This document shows positions 10,097 through 56,026 of a stretch of DNA of 64,000 bases, in pieces. The position numbers and the translations under genes were made by a program. The notes below the pieces were generated by a model. That model made no database searches and was not told the DNA's origin. It saw nothing but the letters and a program-made list of their open reading frames with translations. Origin of the DNA: a virus (taxonomy: Duplodnaviria; Caudoviricetes); IMG/VR virus record IMGVR_UViG_3300028805_000089, positions 24,718 through 88,717 of that record; one strand, given 5' to 3'. Within the stretch, counting starts at the first letter, position 1, and every line of letters begins with the position of its first letter.

Positions 10097-10308
10097 ATTA
10101 TCCGATTTTATCTCCACTCTCCACTCTTCACTCTCCACTCTGTTCTGTCCTCTTCACTCTAAAATAAAAAAAGCCCCGCGCACAGGCTACGCTGCCCATG
10201 CACGGGACCCCGAAAGGAGGTGATGCTGTTTCGGGACCGCCACTTCCCGAACGCATACTCATCATACCTTCTTTACGTCTTCACTTCAATCCTTCGTCCA
10301 AATAAACA

Positions 10309-43889: not shown

Positions 43890-45602
43890 TTACGGGGCGA
43901 ACATATTGCCCGTCACCGTATACTCCCGGTATTCCTCATACTCGCCATCAATATCGCTCTCGTGCCCTTCGCTCGTGATGCCCTCGCTTCTCGGCCTCCC
44001 GCCGACGTCCCGGAGTTCTCCGCTCGTGGCGCTCTTGCCGCTGACGCCGCCGTTGTAGCTTGTTGCGATTGGCACCCGCAGGTCGCTGAGACCCACGGCC
44101 TTCAGCGCCTTCGACATCGCGATATCCTCAAGCACGCTTGAGTCCATCAGCGCGTCGTATTTGAACCACGCCGGGAGGATGCCAAGCGCCAGATCCTTCT
44201 TCGCCGCTTCCGCGTCCTGCCGGTCCAGATAAAGGTTCCCAAACATCTTGAACCGCCATTCGTGCTTCAGCCCCGCGTTTCCAAGAATCCAGTTCATCAT
44301 CTTCTCGAACGTCCTGTACACGGACGCGGCAAATTCGCCTTCCATGTATTGTGCGCTCATGATGCTCCCGGCCCTCGGCTCTTCGCTGATCGGCACCAGC
44401 CCGTTGCCTGCTTTCAGCATGGCATACTTGTATCCCTTGCTGCTCACATCGGTAGCGCTCGGCGCTTCGTCCAGTTGCTCAAGGTGCATATTCTGGAACG
44501 GCGCGGCGTAAAGTCCTACACCTGACGTGTTGTTGGCGGCAAGCATTTGATACCACAGTGCTTCAAAGTATTTCCGCCCGGTGGGGGAGAGCTTATACGG
44601 GTCGTGCTGGTCCGGCACCGTGTTCTCGGCATACGGGATTTCACCCAATACGCAGGAAATCAACGGATTCTGCACCAACGCCAACTGCACGGCCTCGTAC
44701 TGACTCACCTGTTCCATCGCAAGGAACAGCCCCGTAAACGGGCTGAATACGTTGCGGTTCACGTCGTCGCATTCAAAGGTCCACACCTTTTCCGGAGGCA
44801 GCGTCACCCAGTAGAACCACCGCCCGTTCTGCACGTACACTTCCGGGTTGCCCATCGTGCCGCGCACCTTTTCCTGCTCCATAAAGAACACGCGCTTGCC
44901 GTTGGGTTCTCCGGGCATCGGCCCGGTCTGTCCCATAAAAATGCTGATATACGGTTTAAACAGGTCCCCGAATTGCCGCCAGTCGGTTCCCGGCTGCATG
45001 AAATACATCATGTCAAACGCCACGGTGTACTTGCTTACGCTGTTGTATCCCACGATCTTGCACCAGTCCGTGGGCAGTTGCTGCATCGCCGCGCTCAGTA
45101 CCCGGTTGTGGCTCTTATCGATATTGATCCTCGGATGGTAAAACGCTTTTCCATCCTGCAATACCTGACCCGCGATCATGTGCGCGTTGATCTTCGGTTC
45201 CATCGCAAGCCGTATCTTCTCGGCCATCTGCCATTCCCGCATGAACTTCGGGCTGCTCATCGCTTCCTCGTTCATACACAGGGGGTACACATAGTTTCGG
45301 CAGGTCAGGATGTCCTGCGTTGTCTTGCGCAGTTTAAACAGCGGATATGCGCTGTACTCCAGCGCATGCATCGCTTCCCGAAGCGGTTCCTCGCTGAAAT
45401 CGGGATTCTTCAGCATGTCCGCGATTTTGTCTTTATCATAATCAATCGGCACCGACGTGATGTGCTTCACCCGGTTGTTGTGGGTATCCGGGTCGCCGTC
45501 GATGGAGGCGAGATACATGGCGTCGTATACGCTGTCCGGATCCATCTTCTCAAAGCGCTTGGCGATGTTCCGCGCCTTGGAAAACAAATCCGCGTATCCC
45601 AT
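43890..45602 (-). CDS. portal protein
   Basis: About 570 aa, directly downstream of the terminase region; no TAG. Confidence 0.75.
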   Translation of the reverse strand: MGYADLFSKARNIAKRFEKMDPDSVYDAMYLASIDGDPDTHNNRVKHITSVPIDYDKDKIADMLKNPDFSEEPLREAMHALEYSAYPLFKLRKTTQDILTCRNYVYPLCMNEEAMSSPKFMREWQMAEKIRLAMEPKINAHMIAGQVLQDGKAFYHPRINIDKSHNRVLSAAMQQLPTDWCKIVGYNSVSKYTVAFDMMYFMQPGTDWRQFGDLFKPYISIFMGQTGPMPGEPNGKRVFFMEQEKVRGTMGNPEVYVQNGRWFYWVTLPPEKVWTFECDDVNRNVFSPFTGLFLAMEQVSQYEAVQLALVQNPLISCVLGEIPYAENTVPDQHDPYKLSPTGRKYFEALWYQMLAANNTSGVGLYAAPFQNMHLEQLDEAPSATDVSSKGYKYAMLKAGNGLVPISEEPRAGSIMSAQYMEGEFAASVYRTFEKMMNWILGNAGLKHEWRFKMFGNLYLDRQDAEAAKKDLALGILPAWFKYDALMDSSVLEDIAMSKALKAVGLSDLRVPIATSYNGGVSGKSATSGELRDVGGRPRSEGITSEGHESDIDGEYEEYREYTVTGNMFAP

Positions 45603-45606
45603 ATAA

Positions 45607-45933
45607 TTACCTGACGCCACCGGAATCACCGCCTTTCTCTTTTATCTCCAGTTCCTTTTCCAGCCTGTCCAGGAAATCAAAAAACTGTTTGTATTTGTCT
45701 CCGTTCTTTGTTTCGCCGTTGATGGACACCAGCGCGTCCAGCGCCCACCGCCGCTCAAGTTCGTTCAGTTCCCCTTCGCCCGTCAGTTTCCGGTTCTTTA
45801 CCGCCGGTTCCGTATCCATCATCACAAGGATGCTGTTGTCCCTGCTCCGGTGATACCTCTGCCCGACAGCATAATCCAGGCACTTCCTCGTCAGCGGCAG
45901 TTCGTAGATGCAAACCTTCTGAATGTCCATCAT
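45607..45933 (-). CDS. hypothetical protein between terminase and portal
   Basis: 108 aa ORF. Confidence 0.65.
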   Translation of the reverse strand: MMDIQKVCIYELPLTRKCLDYAVGQRYHRSRDNSILVMMDTEPAVKNRKLTGEGELNELERRWALDALVSINGETKNGDKYKQFFDFLDRLEKELEIKEKGGDSGGVR

Positions 45934-46041
45934 TTTATTTTCTCCATTCTTTTTTTTGCGCCGCCCTTATTGGCGTTCACAGTCTCTCCGTTCCCCGCGT
46001 GAGTTTCTTTATCTTCACTCTTCACTCTTCACTCTTCACTC

Positions 46042-47853
46042 TCACCGTTGAGCGTTCCCACCCCGGTATCCAAGCCCGCGTCCCCTCGTGTCCAGGTGCT
46101 TCATCCCGCCTTTACGCTCAAACTCTTCTTCCCATTCTCCCCGGCGCTCAAAGTCCATCGCCAGTTCCTGGTACTCCAGTTTGCTTGCCCACCGGCAGGC
46201 GTACTTGAATGCCGACCACATATCCCTCTGGATATGGTTGCTCACGCGCTGCTCCTTGATGGTCACGCCCATCGGCTTTTTCACGAGGTTGGCTATCTGT
46301 TCGCACATCTCTTTCGTCTTGATGTACGGTATGGCGATGCTTGCGTTCAGATCATCGTCCTTGATCCGGTGGGCCTGCTTGTATGCCGCCACGCCGTCGT
46401 ACACGTTCTGCGTCAGCAGCCGCATGTTCCCGTGTTCAAACTCGATCTCCATATACCGCACCATCTCGGCGTCCGGGTCATGCGTCCCGGTCACGCCGCC
46501 CTGGCCCGTGGCCTTGATGGCGTATATCACAGGCAGCGCCCCGTTCCTCTCAAGTTCTGGGAACTCATGGTTCACCGTGCATAGGGGAGGGAGTCCGTCT
46601 CCCAAATCCTTGTGCAAATCCTCAAGCACTCCCTTGCCGTATTGCCAGGAGTCGATGGCGATGTACACCCGGCTGCCGCCTGCGGCGTAACGCCTGAAGG
46701 TTTCCTTCAGTTGCCGCGCCTGCATCATTGCTTCCCTCGGCGGGGGATTGTCGAAAACATACACAAGGCTTTTCTTGTATCTGTCTGTCCGGAACGCGCC
46801 CTTCTGTTTCTCCAGCTTCACGACCGCCGTCGCGCACATGGCGTTTTTCGCCCCGTCCACGTAGCTTACGTCGTACCCGATAACGTATATAACGTCCGGC
46901 TTGCCGCATCCCCGGTCTTCCATCACCGAAAGGTCGCTGCTTTCGTGCAGTACGCTGTCCCGGATGATGGGATTCTCGGTCGATCCCGTCCAGACACATT
47001 CCATTTCACGCGTCCATTCCTCCGGGGTCAGGTTCTTCTTCTGCGTCTTGTACCATTTGATATCGCGGACGCCCAGCAGCACGGCGACGATCCCTGGCCA
47101 GGATATCGAAAAGGCGCTCCCGCCTTCCCTCTGCATCTTTACGATGCTCTCCCGCACCGCATACGCTTCGTTCGTCTTCCTCTAAGGGTTCGTAACGTAG
47201 TGATGCTGTACCTGGGGGAAGAAGGGGTCCCGCTCCTTGTTCACCTTCCGCACGATACGGATGGCGGGGGAGATGACCTTGCGGTAATTCTCATGGTTAA
47301 ATTTGTTCCCGGCCTCCTCCTGCGCAAACTCCTCGTTCGTCACGCCGCTGGCGTTCAGGCCACGGAAGTTCTCGCAGGAAAACAGGCTGCCGAATTTCGT
47401 GTTCAGGATGAACCGCGCTTCGGTGTTGGAGGATACCGTAAAATACTTGCACAGTTCCGGGTAGTTCTGCTGTACCGTCGTCCACGCGTCGCTGATGATA
47501 AGCGCCGTCTGTTTCATGCTCGGCCCGTAATACTGCAGCTTGATCCCCGGATACAGTATCATCATCACCAGGTTTGCAAGGAAATGGCTGTAACTCTTCA
47601 GCGTGCCGCGCCCGCCGTCGATGAATGTATCGCTGTACCGGCATACCGCCCGGATATTCACCCTTGCGATGATCTACAGCCCGTACATCGCGTTCGGACT
47701 TTCAAACATATCCAGAAACTTGTCCGGATACCAGCGCCAGTAGCTGATAAGCAGGCCCCATTCGTTCGGAAGCAGGTCAACGTCCCTGTCCCGGACGGTC
47801 TTCTTCTCTTCCCATTTCCTTTTGCTTTTGTTGTAATGCACCCTGAAAGGCAT
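46042..47853 (-). CDS. terL: terminase large subunit, 603 aa; TAGs at codons 60 and 224
   Basis: RWYPDKFLD, GGRGTLKS (Walker A-like), GVTNEE (Walker B-like), YVTNP*RK, GYDVS nuclease motif, RDMWSAFKY. Confidence 0.88.
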
Positions 47854-48834
47854 TTACACCCGCTCCCTTCGGGGCGGCAGCTTGCCCAGTTCCTTCATGA
47901 TGGCTTTTTCCTGATCGGTCATGCCGGTCTCCAGTTCCCCGAATACGTCGGTCACCTGAAGGTAGTCCGGCACCTCAGTCAGCACCCGCTCTCCGTCCGT
48001 CCGCCGCCTCGCGTTCTCTGCCACCAACATTACGGCGTCAATAATGTCCAGGCTTGTACCGTAATGTATATGCGTACTGTCGGCGATCCACTTCAGCAGC
48101 GTGTCCCGGTCGCACAGCGTTCCGTCCGTCATGGCCCCGCGCCTTTCAAGCGCATCCACGATGGCGTCCACCCGCATGTCCTCGGCGGGCTTTTCGTCGC
48201 TCGCCTTCATGCTCTCCATGTCGCGGGTCTTCTTTATAATATCGGTAATGCGGTTGGCCACGTCGAAGTCGCCGGTCCGCATCGCCTTGTCGAATTCCAC
48301 GTCCAGTTTGGAAAGGGCGATCAGGTTCTTCTCGATACGCGGGGTAATGTTTCCCTTGAACTCATGGGACTCCACGTTGTACTTGCGGTCAAGTTCTTCG
48401 TAGTCTTCGTCCGCAAGGCCACTGCCCCACTTCTCGCGCCATTCCTCGCGTTTCAAATCTTCCTTTGTCTTTTCCTTCGCCAGCGGTTCAGGCAAATCGC
48501 CTTCTTCAAACACCGCCGCCACCTTTGTGGTCCCGGTGTAAAACCGTTTCCTTGTATCAATGGATTTCAGGTATTCTGTCCATACCGCCGCAGGGTTCTT
48601 ATCTTTCGGAGTGAACAACGGGTTGAAGGGGATATCGCAGGCAGCGCACATAATGTAAAGCGCTTCCTTCGTGGAACCGGCCTGGAAACTTAGGTACACG
48701 AAGCGCTTCCCCGTGCATTCTTTGCATTCGCCATGCCATCCGCTCGGAGAAAGCGCTGTATCAACTTTTATTCCGTTGTCCTCGCTGATCACCTTTCCGC
48801 AGGTGCAGCACTTCTTTGCCGCCGTACCTTTCAC
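47854..48834 (-). CDS. Zn-finger protein upstream of terL (possible terminase small subunit)
   Basis: CCTCG, CKEC and CAACDIPF motifs; TAAATG junction with terL. Confidence 0.6.
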   Translation of the reverse strand: MKGTAAKKCCTCGKVISEDNGIKVDTALSPSGWHGECKECTGKRFVYLSFQAGSTKEALYIMCAACDIPFNPLFTPKDKNPAAVWTEYLKSIDTRKRFYTGTTKVAAVFEEGDLPEPLAKEKTKEDLKREEWREKWGSGLADEDYEELDRKYNVESHEFKGNITPRIEKNLIALSKLDVEFDKAMRTGDFDVANRITDIIKKTRDMESMKASDEKPAEDMRVDAIVDALERRGAMTDGTLCDRDTLLKWIADSTHIHYGTSLDIIDAVMLVAENARRRTDGERVLTEVPDYLQVTDVFGELETGMTDQEKAIMKELGKLPPRRERV

Positions 48835-48838
48835 TCCT

Positions 48839-49003
48839 TCAGCATTCTTCCCATTCGTTGCCGTTCCATACCCAGCAGTATTTCATGTCCTCCGTGTGGG
48901 CGATGGTCCCGACGGGATATCCATCCTCCCACAGGATGTTCTCAAGCGCTTCCGGAGATTTAAGCACGATCTCCCTGCGCTCCTTCTCTTCTCCCATCGG
49001 CAT
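48839..49003 (-). CDS. small hypothetical protein (54 aa)
   Basis: GGAGGTA RBS, MPMGEEK...WVWNGNEWEEC. Confidence 0.55.
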   Translation of the reverse strand: MPMGEEKERREIVLKSPEALENILWEDGYPVGTIAHTEDMKYCWVWNGNEWEEC

Positions 49004-49035
49004 TACCTCCGTACAGGGGACGGTTCTATGTGTTA

Positions 49036-49080
49036 GCCTTCCCCGTTTGGGGAAGGTGGCCCGAAGGGCCGGATGAGGTT
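49036..49080 (+). repeat. palindromic CCTTCCCC..GGGGAAGG..GGATGAGG element, copy 3
   Basis: Same element as at 11601 and 24123. Confidence 0.8.
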
Positions 49081-49108
49081 CTTCGTCTCCCCGTAACCTC
49101 GTAAACAG

Positions 49109-49181
49109 CGGGAAATGCCGGACTCGAACCAACAGCCATCGCGTTAACAGCGCGCCGCTCTCCCAATTGAGCTAATTTCCC
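49109..49181 (-). tRNA. tRNA-Asn(GUU)
   Basis: GGGAAAT/ATTTCCC acceptor, GCTC/GAGC D stem, GCGCG-CT GTT AA-CGCGA arm, TTCGAGT T loop. Confidence 0.88.
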
Positions 49182-49388
49182 GTATCCATCCTGCTAACCG
49201 GAAGGTGATTCCCGGTCTGTCATTCCTTTTCCCTTCCGTAACCTCGGACCGCGCCTTTCCCTTTCTCCCGTGGCCTCGGATGCTGACAAAGCATGTGTAC
49301 CATCGTTCGTCCGTTGATGACGCTGTTGATTATTTATCTTCGTCCAAAACTCCACTCTTCACTCTCCACTCTTCACTCTTTTAAAAAG

Positions 49389-49475
49389 CGGAGGCACAGG
49401 GATTTGAACCCCGGGGGGCTTTTACACCCCTGCGGTTTTAGAGACCGCCGCATTCAACCGCTCTGCCATGCCTCC
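49389..49475 (-). tRNA. amber suppressor tRNA-Ser(CUA)
   Basis: GGAGGCA/TGCCTCC acceptor, G73, Ser-type D arm GCAGAGCGGTTGAATGC, perfect stem GCGGT-CT CTA AA-ACCGC, long variable arm, CGGGG-TTCAAAT-CCCTG. Confidence 0.93.
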
Positions 49476-49545
49476 ATACAAAAACGGCACATCCTTTCGG
49501 ATGTGCCGCATTGGCACGCAGACGTCTTCTCGCCCCGTTACCCGT

Positions 49546-49574
49546 ATTATACCATTTTTTTCAACAAAAGTCAA
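49546..49574 (-). promoter_or_regulatory. sigmaA/sigma70 consensus promoter for tRNA-Ser(CUA) and the late operon
   Basis: TTGACT - 17 bp - TATAAT with TGn extension, about 70 nt upstream of the tRNA. Confidence 0.85.
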
Positions 49575-49575
49575 G

Positions 49576-49591
49576 GTAAGTCAAGACTTAC
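49576..49591. promoter_or_regulatory. palindromic operator abutting the -35 box
   Basis: GTAAGTC-AA-GACTTAC, perfect 7-2-7 inverted repeat. Confidence 0.6.
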
Positions 49592-49607
49592 GCATAAAAA
49601 AATATAG

Positions 49608-50090
49608 TTATTTTTCATTTTTTACGACGTTCCGGATGATTTCAACCGCTTTCTCCGCGTCACTGATCGTCAGTCCGCTCAACGCGCAGGTCTTCACAAG
49701 GTGGGGGAGGATGCCGTTGTCATCATAATCCGGCGCAACCTCGTCGTCCAGTACGCACCATCCTTCCATCAGGTCTTTGGCGTTCCTGTCTATCCATTCC
49801 CTGATCTCCGCGCCGCGCCCGTCGCCGTGTCCGGTCTTCCCGCTGATGTGTATCCCGCATCTCTTCAACTTCCGCACCAGGTACTTCCCGGTCTCGCTCG
49901 TTTCCTCCGGGTCCCGTTCCCATTCGTCCCGCCAGGAGGAACACAGCACCACGATGGCGTCCGTCTCTTCGATGATGTGCTTCAGCTTTTTAACGCACGC
50001 GTCCTATATCCCGGTATGCCCTCCGGGTTCCGTCGCGTCGCATCCGGCGTAATTCAGCACGCCGTCCACGTCCAGAAATACTGCCTTCAT
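49608..50090 (-). CDS. HAD-superfamily hydrolase (Swiss Army Knife RNA-repair type), 160 aa; TAG at codon 29
   Basis: MKAVFLDVDGVLN motif I lies upstream of GI*DAC; VVLCSSWR and CVLDD lie downstream. Confidence 0.85.
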
Positions 50091-50326
50091 TTATCCGTCT
50101 CCCATTTCCTTGAATCAACCATGCCGTTCCACGCGGTGTCCTTCGCGTCCCGCATTCGTGTCAGCGTCATCACGTTCCCGCAGTCCTCACATGTGACTTC
50201 TGCTTCTTCCCAAACCGTCAGTCGTACAATCCTGCCCTTCTTCCTTACGGCCAGTATCTCATCCTCCATCACCCCCAGCGTGTTCCCGCAGTTCGGACAT
50301 GTCACCTTAAAAGAGGGTTTCTTCAT
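50087..50326 (-). CDS. Zn-ribbon protein
   Basis: CPNCG...CEDCG. Confidence 0.7.
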   Translation of the reverse strand: MKKPSFKVTCPNCGNTLGVMEDEILAVRKKGRIVRLTVWEEAEVTCEDCGNVMTLTRMRDAKDTAWNGMVDSRKWETDK

Positions 50327-50729
50327 TCACTTCCTCCTCGTATTCCTCGGACATCGTCTCGTCCCCGTTCTTCAGCGCCCGCATCGCTTCCTGCTCCATC
50401 TGCACGGTCGGGTCGAACTCCCATTTCTGCACAAGCACCGTCAGGTTCACGCCCAGGTCTTCGCCTGTCTTCCGTTTGTATGCCGTGCCGCCCACGGTCC
50501 CAATGACGATGATATAGTTTCCTTCCTTCACCTTTTCCAGCAGGCTGTTTCCAACCTCGCCATAGGCGTACAGGGTGAAATTGTCATACTTCCCTTCGGC
50601 GGTTTTTCTCTTCGACGCACGCTTTACACCCACGCGGAGAGTCACAAAGTTGTTCTTTGTGATTTTGCTCTCCCTGATGGTCGGTGCGCTGCTGACCCTG
50701 CCGCAGATGATAAGTTTGTTGAAATACAT
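50307..50729 (-). CDS. second, divergent SSB-like OB-fold protein
   Basis: NKLIICGRV...LRVGVKR...KEGNYIIVIG; acidic C-terminus. Confidence 0.65.
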   Translation of the reverse strand: MYFNKLIICGRVSSAPTIRESKITKNNFVTLRVGVKRASKRKTAEGKYDNFTLYAYGEVGNSLLEKVKEGNYIIVIGTVGGTAYKRKTGEDLGVNLTVLVQKWEFDPTVQMEQEAMRALKNGDETMSEEYEEEVNEETLF

Positions 50730-50733
50730 TTGT

Positions 50734-51153
50734 TTATTCCTTTCTCTCTGATTCAAATTCTTTGTGTTTCTTTGCTACAACTTCGCGCATCTCGTTGATG
50801 GCGTTCGTAATGTCCTGCACGAACGGGTAACGCGCCCTTTCCTTCAGGGCCTCCCGGAATGCGTCCTATTCCTGCCTGTGCGCGTCCAGTTCGTCCCGCG
50901 TGAATATTTGCTTCGACCTCTTCTCGTACTGGTCCACGTACATCTTCCCGTTGTCCCCGTCGTATGTCACTTCGTAGAACTTCCCGTCGTAAGGCGTCGT
51001 GATGACTAACGCCTTCCTGTTCTGGATCGTCTTGCAGTACCACACCAGCCGCAGACCGTCGATCTTAAAGTCCCTCGGCACCCGGTACTTCAGAGCGTAT
51101 TCCATGTCCCGGAAAAACTGTTCCTCAATCAGCGGCATTCCTTCCTCGATCAT
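50734..51153 (-). CDS. DUF6275-like phage protein, 139 aa; TAG at codon 96
   Basis: VWYCKTIQNRKAL...YEVTYDGD; HRQE*DAFREAL continues to a TAA next to the downstream RBS. Confidence 0.7.
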
Positions 51154-51653
51154 TTCCCGTCGTCCCCTCCGTCATCCATGTAGATGCTCACCTTCGATTT
51201 CGTCTCTTCCTCTTTACCGATGGTCTCGCTGATCACCACGTTGCTCACTTCCTCACTCAGGCTCGAAAGCACGTTCTTCAGTTCATCATCCGTTTCGGAC
51301 ATCATCGTGCAGATTCCGTGCAGCGCCCCGGCCACATACTGGAGCATGTAGATGTTTTCCTGTTTCATTCCGTTCGTCCTTTCCTTTATCTTTTTTATCT
51401 TTGCCTTGGTTCTCCCAATGATATCTTCTACAGCTTCTTTCATGGTTCCACATTCTGTAACCGACATTTCGTTGACATTACGTTCTGGCGAAATGTCATC
51501 CGCAATGTCCGCCGCGCCGCCGGGTGGTTCTTCGTCTTTCCCAAGGCGTATATGGCAGCACGCGCATTCCGGCCTCCTGGAAAATTCCCTCGCCCCGCAG
51601 TTCGGGCATTCAAACCATGTGAACCAACCGTCGTCCCGTTCCTCCCAGTCCAT
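51150..51653 (-). CDS. Zn-ribbon hypothetical protein
   Basis: CPNCG...CACC. Confidence 0.65.
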   Translation of the reverse strand: MDWEERDDGWFTWFECPNCGAREFSRRPECACCHIRLGKDEEPPGGAADIADDISPERNVNEMSVTECGTMKEAVEDIIGRTKAKIKKIKERTNGMKQENIYMLQYVAGALHGICTMMSETDDELKNVLSSLSEEVSNVVISETIGKEEETKSKVSIYMDDGGDDGK

Positions 51654-52894
51654 TACCGGCCTCCCATCTCCCGCAGCATTTCAACGCATTCCTTTAGTAT
51701 GCGCATCGCCTGCCGCACCTCGTCCCTGGTGTTCAACGCCCCGGCACTCAGCCGCACGGTCCCGTGCAGATATTCCTCCGGCACCTTCATCGCCCGAAGC
51801 ACATGACTGCTCTCAGCCGTTCCTGCCGTACATGCGCTTCCTGCGGAGCATATTACGCCCCGGTTCTCCAGCATTGTGATGAGCGCTTCGTTCTCAACGT
51901 CCTTGAACCCGACGCTGACGATCCCGCCCTCCGCGCACGGTTCCCCGTTGATCCTTGCGTCTGGTATATCCGCGATCCCGGCGATCATCTCGTCCGTCAT
52001 CCCGGACAGACCGCCCCACTCGCAAAAGGCCCGTTCGTTCTTCAGCGCCTCTGCCATGCACACCGCCGCCGTCACGTCCTCCGTCCCCGGTCTGCGTCCA
52101 AGCTGCTGCGCTCCGCCCTCCATCAGATTTGCGACCGCCGCGCCGTTCCGGATATACGTTATACCTCGCCCCTTCCCGGCGTGGAACTTATGGCCGCTGG
52201 CGGTCAGCATATGGCATCCGATGTCGTTCACGTCGATGAACAGCTTGCCCAGCGCCTGCGTCGCGTCCACATGGAACAGGATGTCGCGTTCCTTCAGGAT
52301 ATCACCGATTTCCCAAACCGGATTCAGCACGCCGGTCTCGTTGTTCACCATCATTACGCTGACAAGGATCGTGTTGTCCTTTATCGCGTTCTCAACGTCC
52401 GATGTCCGTACCTCGCCGCTCTTTTCGTCCACCGGCAGATACGTCGCTTCGCACAAGCCCCGCTCCACCAGCGCCTTTACCACGTTCAGCACGCTGTGAT
52501 GCTCGGCCTCGTCCGTAATGATATGCGGCAATACGTTCGGAAAAGGGGAATTATCAGCGTCGCTGTTTTTGCCTTCCCCGATTGGGGAAGGTGGCACCGA
52601 CCGAAGGGAGGTGACGGATGAGGTTCCCCGTTCCCGTCCTTCCATCCACGCTTCCACCGCGCCCCGAATGCACCAGTTGTTCCCCTCTGTCGCCCCGGAC
52701 GTAAAGTAAACCTCTCCGTCCTCCGCGCCAATCTCGAACGCGATATCTCTCCTCGCCTTATCGATCTTCTCCCGCGCTTTTCTTCCTTCTTCGTTCAGCG
52801 CGTGCGCGTTTCCGTATACCTCGTTCGCCATCCGCGCCGCCGCCCTTACCTCCGGCGTCATCTCCGTCGTCGCGGCGTTATCAAGATAGATCAC
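51653..52894 (-). CDS. iscS: cysteine desulfurase (IscS/NifS/DndA family)
   Basis: YLDNAATT, FTSGATE, EHHSV, NNETG, HVDATQ, SGHK (PLP Lys), SAGSAC (catalytic Cys). Confidence 0.93.
   Translation of the reverse strand: MIYLDNAATTEMTPEVRAAARMANEVYGNAHALNEEGRKAREKIDKARRDIAFEIGAEDGEVYFTSGATEGNNWCIRGAVEAWMEGRERGTSSVTSLRSVPPSPIGEGKNSDADNSPFPNVLPHIITDEAEHHSVLNVVKALVERGLCEATYLPVDEKSGEVRTSDVENAIKDNTILVSVMMVNNETGVLNPVWEIGDILKERDILFHVDATQALGKLFIDVNDIGCHMLTASGHKFHAGKGRGITYIRNGAAVANLMEGGAQQLGRRPGTEDVTAAVCMAEALKNERAFCEWGGLSGMTDEMIAGIADIPDARINGEPCAEGGIVSVGFKDVENEALITMLENRGVICSAGSACTAGTAESSHVLRAMKVPEEYLHGTVRLSAGALNTRDEVRQAMRILKECVEMLREMGGR
52571..52636 (+). repeat. palindromic element copy 4, inserted in frame within the cysteine desulfurase gene
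   Basis: Encodes GTSSVTSLRSVPPSPIGEG on the - strand. Confidence 0.8.
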
Positions 52895-53156
52895 TTGCTA
52901 TCCTCACTTCCCTTATTCCGTATCGTTTCATCGCTCTTTGTATGTCCCGCGTCCAGTCGTCCCTGTCCGTGTGCCGGTTTGAGAAGATCAGCCCGTCCGG
53001 CAGCCCTTCTCCCGACGCCATAAAAATGTGCGCCCGCATTACGCCCCCGCTGTCCGCGTCCTTAATACACCACCCGCAGCCACCGCCGGAAACAGCATTC
53101 AGCGATGATTCGCGTTCCGCAGGAAGAAGGCGAATATACGCCCCCCCGCGTGGGAA

Positions 53157-54239
53157 TTACTGGATTTTTCCGATATCGAGCCAGTAGAGGAACACCCGCA
53201 TGGGCATGTCGAAGCACCGTTTCCATTCGTATTCTTCAACTCCCCTTGTACCATTCCATCCATTTCTCGGCGGAAAGTCTCCCGATACCCCCCCCACATT
53301 TTCCAATAACTGGATACTCTCAAACCGCTCGTCATCCTCCGCTTCCAGGGGATACGCCGCCGCGTATTCCGGCTGCAGTATCTTAATCTGTCCCGGATGA
53401 TTCTCGATCATCTTTTCAAACGCCCGAATGTACAGTTCCTTGTACCTCGGCCACCGTTCAAATTCCCGTTCCATGTTCTTCCGTCCGCTGAGCGGGCATC
53501 CGATGCACCCCAGCCTTGTGAATCCCTCGTCGTATAATTCGCAGTAGGGGAGACCGTAGGCGAAAATAAAGTCCCACACGTCCCGTTCCGTCCATTTGAT
53601 GATGGGGTTCAACAACGTCTTCCGCGTCCGGTAGCACTGTTCTACCATTCTGCGGCTTTCGTTGTTGTCGTTGTTCAAAATCACGCCGCCGCTTTTGTTC
53701 GTCCCGTATTCCACGTTCAGCCGCTCCGCGACCTTCCGTGTGCTTACGGGCTTGTTCTGGAAGTCCACCACGCCGTGGTTGTTTTTTCTGTTGGCGCTTT
53801 CCGCCCACCGGACGCCCGTTACCGTCACCCGGCCCGCCTCGTTGCTTTCCTTCAGTGCGCTGCAACAGTACCTTGCCATCCGCGTCGGCGGCAGCGTGTG
53901 CTGGGCGATCAGGGTCCACATTGAAACTCTTTTCCCGTTCCTGTCGCGTGGATAATCCCAGGTTACGTCCGGATGATATTGCCTGATGTACTTCATCAAC
54001 TCCGGCGGGTCCACGCTCGTCACACTGTAATGCGCCTCGTAGTCCACTTCCGCCAGGTCCGCGATCTTCTTCAGTGCAATCGAATCCTTCCCGCCGGAAA
54101 ACGCTAACCAATATTTGTCAGGCGGTGGGGGGGTGAACGTTTTCAAAAACCTTACGCTCTCCCGCACCTTCGCCTTCAGTTCGTCGCTCATATCCTCTGG
54201 CCTGTGCGGTGTAGACATATCAACAATAGGCATTCCCAC
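53157..54239 (-). CDS. PAPS-reductase-family (PP-loop, Fe-S) protein
   Basis: AFSGGKDS, RYCC..LKE, GVRWAES, NPIIKW, RLGCIGCP. Confidence 0.88.
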   Translation of the reverse strand: MGMPIVDMSTPHRPEDMSDELKAKVRESVRFLKTFTPPPPDKYWLAFSGGKDSIALKKIADLAEVDYEAHYSVTSVDPPELMKYIRQYHPDVTWDYPRDRNGKRVSMWTLIAQHTLPPTRMARYCCSALKESNEAGRVTVTGVRWAESANRKNNHGVVDFQNKPVSTRKVAERLNVEYGTNKSGGVILNNDNNESRRMVEQCYRTRKTLLNPIIKWTERDVWDFIFAYGLPYCELYDEGFTRLGCIGCPLSGRKNMEREFERWPRYKELYIRAFEKMIENHPGQIKILQPEYAAAYPLEAEDDERFESIQLLENVGGVSGDFPPRNGWNGTRGVEEYEWKRCFDMPMRVFLYWLDIGKIQ

Positions 54240-54246
54240 AACTCCT

Positions 54247-54441
54247 TTATATCTTCTTGAATTCCCATTCTGTCTTCCCGGTCATGATCCTTAGTCCGAT
54301 CCTTACCATGGTCCATCCGACATTCTTTATCCACGTCGGTCTTTGCATTTCCCTGTGTGTCCGCATCTGAACGGTCCCGTGGCCAAAGTGCATCATGATT
54401 GTCAATCCCCGGATTCCCGGTCTTTCAGTCTCTCTATCCAT
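54247..54441 (-). CDS. small hypothetical protein
   Basis: 64 aa ORF, start uncertain. Confidence 0.45.
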   Translation of the reverse strand: MDRETERPGIRGLTIMMHFGHGTVQMRTHREMQRPTWIKNVGWTMVRIGLRIMTGKTEWEFKKI

Positions 54442-54683
54442 CTCGCAAGTTTCCTGTTCCTTATGTCGCGTATCCTGTCGCAGTCCTTCAGCGCTACCTG
54501 CTCCAGGTACAGTTCCACATCGGCCACCTCTTCGTCGAAGGCAAGCAGCGCGTCCTGTACGCTGACCGGCGTAGGATTCTTTCCGTTCAGCACACGCCGC
54601 AGCTTCAGCGCCGCCTGGGCCAATTCACTCGCTTCCTCCGCGACTCCCGCAAGCAGTTCGTCCTGCGTCAGGAAGTCCGTCAC
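54402..54683 (-). CDS. MazG-like all-alpha nucleotide pyrophosphohydrolase
   Basis: EEASELAQA...EEVADV acidic motif. Confidence 0.65.
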   Translation of the reverse strand: MTDFLTQDELLAGVAEEASELAQAALKLRRVLNGKNPTPVSVQDALLAFDEEVADVELYLEQVALKDCDRIRDIRNRKLARWIERLKDRESGD

Positions 54684-54684
54684 T

Positions 54685-55038
54685 TTATATTTTTCCGTTT
54701 TCGCTCACCTCCAGTTTCTGCAGCCAGTCCCGGAACTTCAGCCAACCGGGCCTGTCGATTTTCGTATCGCCCAGATAATCTATCGTTATCGTTTTCCCTT
54801 CCGAAAGTTCACGCGTTGATATTTTGTCGTTCTCTTCGATATCCCGCAGAATCGTTGTCTTCACGTTCTCCGTGACCGCCTGCGGATACCTCATGATAAA
54901 GCCCTGCACTAAAGACGGCATGTAACTTTGCCGCCCGATGGCATACCGCACCGCGCAGATCATCAGCGCACCGAATTCGCTTACATCGTCACCCTTAATC
55001 GTTATGCTCTTCCTCTTCTTCTTTGCTGGCGTCAACAT
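54685..55038 (-). CDS. hypothetical phage protein
   Basis: ICAVRYAIGRQSYMP motif; 117 aa. Confidence 0.7.
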   Translation of the reverse strand: MLTPAKKKRKSITIKGDDVSEFGALMICAVRYAIGRQSYMPSLVQGFIMRYPQAVTENVKTTILRDIEENDKISTRELSEGKTITIDYLGDTKIDRPGWLKFRDWLQKLEVSENGKI

Positions 55039-55321
55039 TTCCGTCTTCTCCTTCCGATTTCTTAAACGTTTCCAACATGATCTTCAGCGCGTCCCGTTCG
55101 GCCTGCAGCTTCTTCAGCTTCTTCCGGGCCGTACACTCCGTGCCGCAGTAGCTTTCCCTGCGGCACATCTCGCAATGGCCTCCGCTCTTCCATTGTTCTG
55201 TACCGGCGTTTACTCGGTCGCCGCTGACTTTGCCGCTGCCGACTGATTCCTGTGCCGTAGGATTGATATTCACGTCCTGCATTGCGTTTTTTAATGCTTC
55301 GCTGATTTCCTTCGCTTCCAA
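54995..55321 (-). CDS. hypothetical protein
   Basis: CEMCRRESYC motif. Confidence 0.65.
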   Translation of the reverse strand: MEAKEISEALKNAMQDVNINPTAQESVGSGKVSGDRVNAGTEQWKSGGHCEMCRRESYCGTECTARKKLKKLQAERDALKIMLETFKKSEGEDGNVDASKEEEEEHND

Positions 55322-55333
55322 TCCCGTTCCTCC

Positions 55334-55609
55334 TTATTCCGGCCTGATCTTTACGGATACGATTCTGTCTGTTTCTATTGTAAACAGGTCGCTGTAATAA
55401 TCGCCGTTCTTCTCAAGCCTTTCCGTCCGGTGATCCGCGCTTCCTTCCCGAAGCACCTTCACCTTCCACGCGCCCTCATCGTACTTCACTTCGATCTCCG
55501 TACCGTCATCAAACTCAATATTCACAATCTGCCCGTAGCAGCCTATCTCATCCTGCCAGTCTCCATCGATCTCTATTAGGTCATCGCTCCAGCCGCTTAC
55601 CTGTATCAT
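55334..55609 (-). CDS. hypothetical phage protein
   Basis: MIQVSGWSDDLIEIDG start; 91 aa. Confidence 0.7.
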   Translation of the reverse strand: MIQVSGWSDDLIEIDGDWQDEIGCYGQIVNIEFDDGTEIEVKYDEGAWKVKVLREGSADHRTERLEKNGDYYSDLFTIETDRIVSVKIRPE

Positions 55610-55785
55610 TCGCCTTTTCCCTCCGCTTTGCCGTTCTTTGCGTTTGCTGCCTTTTCCAGTTTGAGATACAGTTCATAGCAATCGTGACACACCATTCTCG
55701 CGTACAGCGTATCGCCATGCCATAAAGGCATCATCGTCAAATAATTTTCTTTCCCGCATATGGAACATTTACCCTTCGTTGGCAT
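55606..55785 (-). CDS. small Zn-finger protein (59 aa)
   Basis: CSICG...CHDC; overlaps both neighbours. Confidence 0.6.
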   Translation of the reverse strand: MPTKGKCSICGKENYLTMMPLWHGDTLYARMVCHDCYELYLKLEKAANAKNGKAEGKGE

Positions 55786-56026
55786 TGTCCGTTTCCGTCA
55801 CCTGCGCTTTGTCTTGTATTTCGCCCTCCGGTTCCTGCGCTTCGTTCTGTATTTCGTCTCCGGGTTCCTGCGGATGCTTGTCCCGGAATTTATGCGTTCT
55901 GTTCTCTCTGCAATACGGACACCAGTTATGGTTTCTGCACAACGGATCTATGGCCTTCGATCCCCTGTACGGTTTCCTGTGTTCCTTCCCGTGGGCTATC
56001 GCTTTATCCAGAGACATCAGTTTCAC
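55769..56026 (-). CDS. hypothetical protein
   Basis: CRNHNWCPYC motif. Confidence 0.7.
   Translation of the reverse strand: MKLMSLDKAIAHGKEHRKPYRGSKAIDPLCRNHNWCPYCRENRTHKFRDKHPQEPGDEIQNEAQEPEGEIQDKAQVTETDNANEG

Follow-up and report, generated by a model that had tools for sequence, protein, structure and literature searches.

The closest described layout is that of Stx phages, in which the promoter PR' is constitutively active and its transcripts are terminated at tR', with tRNA genes lying between tR' and stx2AB, and in which a short terminated RNA, StxS, is made constitutively (PMC7547250). Phages with an altered genetic code provide the second point of reference. Such phages have been reported to decode TAG as Gln and TGA as Trp (10.1101/2021.08.26.457843; PMC10879173), production of the suppressor tRNA has been placed early, before the late phase (10.1101/2021.08.26.457843), and the trigger of the code switch has been called poorly understood (PMC10879173). 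Theta or HDV-like ribozymes have also been reported beside phage suppressor tRNAs (PMC10879173).

Elements of both kinds of system are found together in an 88.7-kb IMG/VR virus record, the final 64 kb of which constitute the stretch of DNA analysed here (the window). A gene for a suppressor tRNA stands directly behind a predicted intrinsic terminator, which is itself preceded by a promoter and a short leader. By comparison of ten related sequences, promoter, leader of about 60 nt and terminator together are one unit of control, which this phage group has conserved where its early genes give way to the late ones.

Anatomy of the early/late boundary

The features of the locus follow one another on the minus strand, from 50326 down, in the order given.

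50087-50326, minus strand: gene for a 79-aa four-Cys Zn-ribbon protein, with weak generic Zn-ribbon Pfam matches only
49608-50090, minus strand: HAD_SAK_2 phosphatase-like gene (Pfam PF18143, E 2e-23, residues 4-144, the match spanning an in-frame TAG)
49592-49607, minus strand: A/T-rich tract (about -45 to -60) including a T7 run, a possible UP element by its sequence
49576-49591, minus strand: perfect palindrome GTAAGTC-TT-GACTTAC, one base upstream of the -35 box
49546-49574, minus strand: promoter of sigma-70/sigma-A type with extended -10 (TTGACT, 17 nt, TGgTATAAT)
49574-49569, minus strand: -35 box TTGACT
49554-49553, minus strand: TG of the extended -10
49551-49546, minus strand: -10 box TATAAT
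49510-49539, minus strand: 5' part of the leader (about 30 nt), a small hairpin (P1) and then CGTGC(C) at 49518-49513
49476-49509, minus strand: predicted intrinsic terminator, an 11-bp stem with GAAA loop (49509-49484), then UUUUUGUAU
49388-49475, minus strand: suppressor tRNA(CUA) of serine type (long variable arm, G73), found by ARAGORN and matching the Rfam tRNA family with 56 bits
49182-49387, minus strand: inter-tRNA spacer of 206 nt, no Rfam family
49108-49181, minus strand: tRNA-Asn(GUU), found by ARAGORN and Rfam
48997-48839, minus strand: 52-aa ORF, which together with the next gene opens the protein-coding part of the late block
48834-47854, minus strand: gene for a 326-aa protein (phrog_3314, function unknown)
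46042-47853, minus strand: gene for a 603-aa protein with TAG at codons 60 and 224 (phrog_15503, function unknown)
45629-43890, minus strand: portal gene
10170-10211, minus strand: strong terminator at the far end of the late block, an 18-bp stem and T-run (-31.6 kcal/mol)

The promoter is present where a preliminary description of this DNA had placed it, with TTGACT, 17 bp and TGn-TATAAT on the minus strand; 70 nt separate its -10 box from the start of the suppressor tRNA at 49475, and that tRNA is the first gene behind it. Transcription is predicted to start near 49539. Against the sigma-70/sigma-A consensus, which the host is presumed to use, the promoter scores 11/12 plus the TGn, and in the 88.7-kb genome just one other site reaches 11/12 or more. 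At a threshold of 9/12, seven promoter-like sites were found in the region against 6.6 expected, i.e. the level of shuffled sequence. The 30-bp promoter is 97-100% identical in three tRNA-bearing relatives (see below), compared with 75-92% for the flanking genes, the A/T-rich tract is 88-94% identical in close relatives, and the pattern TTGAC[AT]-N14-TGnTA fits all ten sequences. Judged on sequence, this is a genuine promoter of strong appearance, better conserved than its flanks; it is near-consensus and looks constitutive, and an activator is probably not needed. The sole 12/12 consensus promoter of the genome (5003-5031, plus strand) precedes a tyrosine-integrase gene (L112:5061-6008) by about 30 nt. 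A second integrase-like gene (L112:6677-7786, minus strand) is found near that promoter, and a TnpB/IS605 OrfB gene (L112:13220-14374) near the integrase genes.

The terminator, absent from the preliminary description, ends 1-4 nt before the suppressor tRNA. Its hairpin (-21.2 kcal/mol, then U5) is the top-ranked and only minus-strand terminator-like site in 44000-56000, and the next strong one on this strand is that at 10211-10170, some 39 kb downstream. In all ten sequences compared the hairpin has an energy of -18 to -27 kcal/mol and a tail of 4-7 U. Within the aligned helix 96.3% of cells pair, against 31-55% with the partner slid, and two pairs show two-sided compensatory change, with a covariation score reached by 3/500 shuffles. 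Changes from U-A to U-G in the stem, moreover, keep pairing on the minus strand only. The element thereby has the sequence and the structural conservation of an intrinsic terminator, at which transcription would be expected to end.

Upstream of the terminator, CGTGC is invariant in 10/10 sequences, and every leader has a predicted P1 hairpin. The GUGCC of the leader can alternatively form a 5-bp helix with the terminator's 5' arm. All cells of this helix (100%) pair, only by way of one-sided G-U changes and with a score matched by shuffles; because compensatory changes are absent, it is a lead and no more. The leader, like the inter-tRNA spacer, matched no known family in Rfam, and inspection of the leader alignment revealed no convincing -10-like pause hexamer in +1 to +25. 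Searches of IMG/VR and GTDB with patterns for hairpin and leader returned chance matches only.

Downstream, the preliminary description had the transcript run on through tRNA-Asn, terminase, head, tail and lysis genes. The common orientation holds for some 39 kb, and the terminase is a candidate: the 603-aa protein is terminase-sized and precedes the portal gene, and its identification as a terminase found no support in Pfam, PHROGs or PDB. The 326-aa protein has invariant Cys37, Cys40 and Cys63 and a very conserved C-terminal two-thirds, and has no match in Pfam or PDB.

On the other side of the module, the Zn-ribbon gene is the last ancestral gene before it, and keeps this position in all relatives; in one of them (L055) its stop codon overlaps the -35 box. 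By this position the Zn-ribbon protein is a candidate late regulator. Its AF2 model is of low confidence (pLDDT 64) and gave no fold match in Foldseek, and in Atlas only ‘CpXC’ look-alikes of Bacillota type were found. No Q, N, RinA/ArpU, Ltr-type or other known antiterminator or late regulator was detected with Pfam and PHROGs among 30 upstream genes. Further upstream (51653-54239, minus strand), a cysteine desulfurase gene (Aminotran_5) adjoins a gene of the PAPS-reductase family, a DndA/DndC-like pair that is conserved in the relatives.

Relatives with and without the suppressor tRNA

Relatives were reached via homologues of the 326-aa protein on contigs from other metagenomes, and the ten sequences compared fall into three diverged subgroups, with 59-98% aa identity in this neighbouring gene. 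No close relative was found in the GenBank phage collection, in IMG/VR (by protein) or in GTDB genomes; one JGI metagenome contig is a close relative. Three contigs (L050, L057 and L058) show 84-98% aa identity in the 326-aa protein and carry the HAD gene, the tRNA(CUA) and the tRNA-Asn in the same order as the window, with 75-92% identity in the Zn-ribbon and HAD genes and 88-96% in the terminator hairpin. Six more distinct relatives (59-66% identity), which form two further subgroups, have neither the HAD gene nor a tRNA at the locus.

The module is nevertheless present in these six. The spacer of 140-215 bp between the Zn-ribbon gene and the first late gene holds promoter, leader and terminator in the order seen in 10/10 sequences, with hairpins of -19 to -27 kcal/mol followed by 4-6 U, and the first late gene is the homologue of the 326-aa gene, whose start codon lies 50-70 nt past the terminator. 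Since this leaves no room for a promoter behind the terminator, the latter belongs to the late 5' leader, and the presence of the module in six relatives without tRNA identifies it as the late-operon leader of the group. The promoter had been described as dedicated to the suppressor; it is not, because the late genes of the tRNA-less relatives carry the same module. A role of the hairpin as a 5'-processing element of the tRNA was ruled out likewise, as relatives without tRNA keep it.

The genetic code differs in parallel. The six tRNA-less relatives have no in-frame TAG in their visible genes, their 605-aa gene is uninterrupted, and TAG serves as the stop in 3/41 called genes. Their residues at the positions of TAG codons 60 and 224 of the 603-aa gene are Ser/Asn and Ser, respectively. 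The window phage thus combines a phage tRNA(CUA) with in-frame TAG at sense positions of conserved genes, as recoded phages do, and the late block is rich in such TAGs, with about 27 spread over 16 genes. They also occur upstream of the promoter. The HAD gene, which is confined to tRNA-bearing relatives, has an in-frame TAG at codon 29 (50006-50004) that is kept in all four tRNA-bearing phages, and a DUF6275 gene (50734-51153, minus strand) has TAG at codon 96, where L050 and L058 have Thr. The HAD gene of L058 contains a second TAG.

The tRNAs were most likely inserted just behind the terminator of an older module. In the simplest history, which is unrooted, a cassette of tRNA-Ser(CUA), spacer RNA, tRNA-Asn and 52-aa ORF would have been inserted behind the terminator, and the HAD gene before the promoter. 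The spacer within this cassette is of interest in its own right. Behind the tRNA 3' end and a T5 run, it begins with a 37-nt insert of tandem GAGTGAAGAGTGGA repeats (49350-49387, minus strand) that is confined to the window phage and L057. Its core of about 149 nt (49330-49182; L050:2560-2702, L057:2470-2617, L058:2290-2437) folds into several helices and is 91-95% identical in the four phages, above the neighbouring protein genes. The core may be a processing element or ribozyme, as far as its sequence suggests; Rfam detected no theta or HDV-like ribozyme beside the tRNA. A search of IMG/VR with the suppressor anticodon arm gave 48 loci, all of them unrelated tRNAs.

Operator, terminator and the control of late transcription

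The preliminary description had proposed a master switch for the tRNA and the late mRNAs, in which a regulator bound to the palindrome beside the -35 box would turn the promoter on or off. The palindrome itself is real: a perfect dyad with 7-bp arms is present one base from the -35, a position unusual at roughly 1-5% when judged post hoc. It is notable for its location only, since perfect 7-bp inverted repeats are frequent in the genome (33 with a spacer of up to 2, 135 with a spacer of up to 10), and no further copy of it was found in the genome within 4 mismatches. The conservation in related phages that the preliminary description had looked to is not seen. The left arm is altered in 3/3 close relatives (57-86% identity), in which the adjacent 30-bp promoter has 0-1 changes, and the contiguous arms shrink to 5 bp in L057 and 4 bp in L050 and are broken (0) in L058. 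What is conserved at the palindrome is not its dyad symmetry but a second, direct TTGACT (49583-49578) within the right arm, 10 bp upstream of the -35 and invariant in these relatives. This hexamer was considered as a second promoter and rejected, as there is no -10 at 16-19 nt from it.

Two observations speak for an operator nonetheless. L057 keeps its 5-bp arms by means of a two-sided change at arm position 5, and relatives in the other subgroups have inverted repeats at the same place. In three relatives with the standard code, a TGTCAAG-N8/9-CTTGACA repeat has the -35 of the late promoter as its right arm (L056:2885-2910, L062:2870-2895 and L111:500-565, in the last twice in tandem); L052 has a 5/7 version of it, and L059 an unrelated inverted repeat with 8-bp arms that abuts the -35. 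These repeats may be repressor sites, or divergent -35 elements or promoters. Their geometry is unlike that of the window's palindrome, and an operator would leave the conserved terminator downstream of it unexplained. With a decaying dyad present in a single genome copy, operator control through the palindrome is improbable, and we give it less credence than any other reading considered here.

Control is likelier to be exerted at termination than at an operator, because a conserved intrinsic terminator stands between promoter and tRNA. The promoter looks constitutive, the terminator follows it immediately and the late operon is very long, and read-through of the terminator is for these reasons ranked as the likely control point. 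By a modest preference, we hold that the late block and the code switch are gated by such read-through, most likely through phage antitermination following the logic of lambda PR'-tR'. Transcripts from the promoter, together with any read-through from the upstream operon, would meet a strong terminator within about 60 nt, and the tRNAs and the packaging, virion and lysis block of about 39 kb would be made only when RNA polymerase passes it. The most likely cause of passage would be a phage-made antitermination factor, and the Zn-ribbon protein, or an RNA-level switch using the invariant CGUGCC, may take part. Since the tRNA cassette lies immediately past the terminator, a single gate would serve both the switch of code and the late mRNAs that contain TAG.

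Several observations count against an antitermination gate. No known antiterminator homologue was found among the upstream genes, family and fold searches with the Zn-ribbon protein were uninformative, a convincing -10-like pause element is lacking, and the alternative hairpin shows no compensatory changes. Start site, termination efficiency and read-through are all predictions, and recognition of the promoter by the host is assumed. The gate would have at least two genes with TAG on its upstream side, and promoter and terminator could instead constitute a small-RNA gene or a fixed leaky attenuator.

The small-RNA gene would produce a trans-acting RNA of 60-80 nt, like lambda 6S/oop or StxS, with late genes and tRNAs fed by residual read-through. 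A strong promoter directly before a strong terminator, conserved as a unit, would fit such a gene, the invariant CGUGC and ever-present 5' hairpin suggest selection on the RNA, and StxS provides a precedent for function in by-product RNAs (PMC7547250). The 5' part of the leader, however, is strongly divergent between subgroups, belongs to no Rfam family and, considered as an antisense RNA, has no complementary target in the phage genome; nor would a small RNA explain the expression of a 39-kb late operon without another visible promoter. As an account of the locus it seems unlikely to us, and it is compatible with antitermination.

The fixed arrangement would involve no switch at all. The hairpin would mainly end or insulate the upstream early/middle operon, and a strong promoter would overcome its partial efficiency to give constant expression. 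Early transcripts must end at this hairpin, because there is no further terminator between the HAD gene and the promoter; no regulator was found among the upstream genes, and the TAG-containing genes there would profit from early tRNA. On the other hand, every relative has a strong, canonical hairpin, the promoter is always upstream of the terminator and never behind it in three diverged subgroups, and a phage that carries integrases needs its lysis genes silent in lysogeny. We consider this reading about as doubtful as a small-RNA gene.

If read-through of the terminator is the gate, its consequences for decoding differ somewhat from those first imagined. The preliminary description had likened the arrangement to an AND-gate, in which tRNA and TAG-containing messages are both needed. 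The concentration of TAGs downstream and the shared input agree with this, but at least two upstream genes (HAD and DUF6275) also need TAG read-through, and for that reason the gate is not clean. With tRNA and TAG-containing mRNAs on one input, the arrangement is a feed-forward one, with no second input that is independent of the first. Even so, the output of late proteins would be delayed and made sharper, in keeping with the preliminary description. It is tempting to go further and to speculate that the group possesses an undescribed antitermination system, in which the Zn-ribbon protein or another factor would act on the P1-CGUGCC-terminator leader, so that the late mRNAs and the altered code needed for their translation would arise from one read-through event. 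We regard this more specific proposal as possible, with the balance clearly tilted against it. If true, it would give a concrete answer, in a group of uncultured gut phages, to the question of what triggers the code switch in recoded phages.

Independently of the nature of the gate, the standard-code relatives show where in an existing circuit the suppressor tRNA sits, namely immediately behind the late-leader terminator, and this placement offers a simple and testable mechanism by which a change of code could be coupled to late transcription. The sublineage with tRNA and TAG codons and the relatives without either also form a natural before/after pair for the recoding of a lineage. Were the gate one of antitermination, its factor would be new; were it a leaky attenuator only, the finding would be ordinary.

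Comparison with known systems

The locus most resembles the lambdoid Q-PR'-tR' system (PMC7547250, PMC6266700). In both, a small phage gene lies directly upstream of a host-type promoter whose transcripts meet an intrinsic terminator shortly before a very long late operon; tRNA genes are found right behind the terminator in Stx phages as well, and a short terminated RNA is to be expected here as a by-product. Unlike the lambdoid phages, the window phage has no Q homologue and no recognisable qut or pause element, and its leader measures about 60-80 nt compared with 194-258 nt. Its host, moreover, is probably Gram-positive, because of the extended -10 and the Bacillota-type look-alikes of the Zn-ribbon protein. 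In contrast to the Stx2 phage, where the tRNA genes appear to have a promoter of their own behind the terminator, the tRNA of the window phage has none, and is a code-changing amber suppressor.

Other systems are similar in single respects. A small 5' hairpin and an invariant short motif before a terminator recall lambda N/nut (boxA and boxB hairpin) and the BglG/SacY RAT, the latter also in the short alternative helix that overlaps the 5' arm of the terminator; the window phage differs in that no homologous protein is present, the motifs are unrelated, and the alternative helix is of 5 bp and shows no covariation. An inverted repeat that adjoins or overlaps the -35 box, clearest in L056, L062 and L111, is reminiscent of operators of CI/Cro type. 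Compared with such dyad sites, that of the window is not conserved and occurs in a single copy, and is a candidate only.

With recoded gut phages (10.1101/2021.08.26.457843; PMC10879173) the window phage shares a phage tRNA(CUA), TAG concentrated in structural and lysis genes and close relatives on the standard code, as well as the idea that recoding times late-gene expression. It differs from them in that TAG aligns with Ser, and in the location of the suppressor tRNA behind the late-operon terminator. The layout itself is of a known kind, that of lambdoid late control, in which tRNAs past the terminator also occur. Neither the leader (P1 hairpin, CGUGCC motif, terminator) nor the candidate protein has been described. 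What is new is that a Ser suppressor which changes the code stands immediately past a conserved terminator of the late leader, in a group whose standard-code members show the same module without the suppressor.
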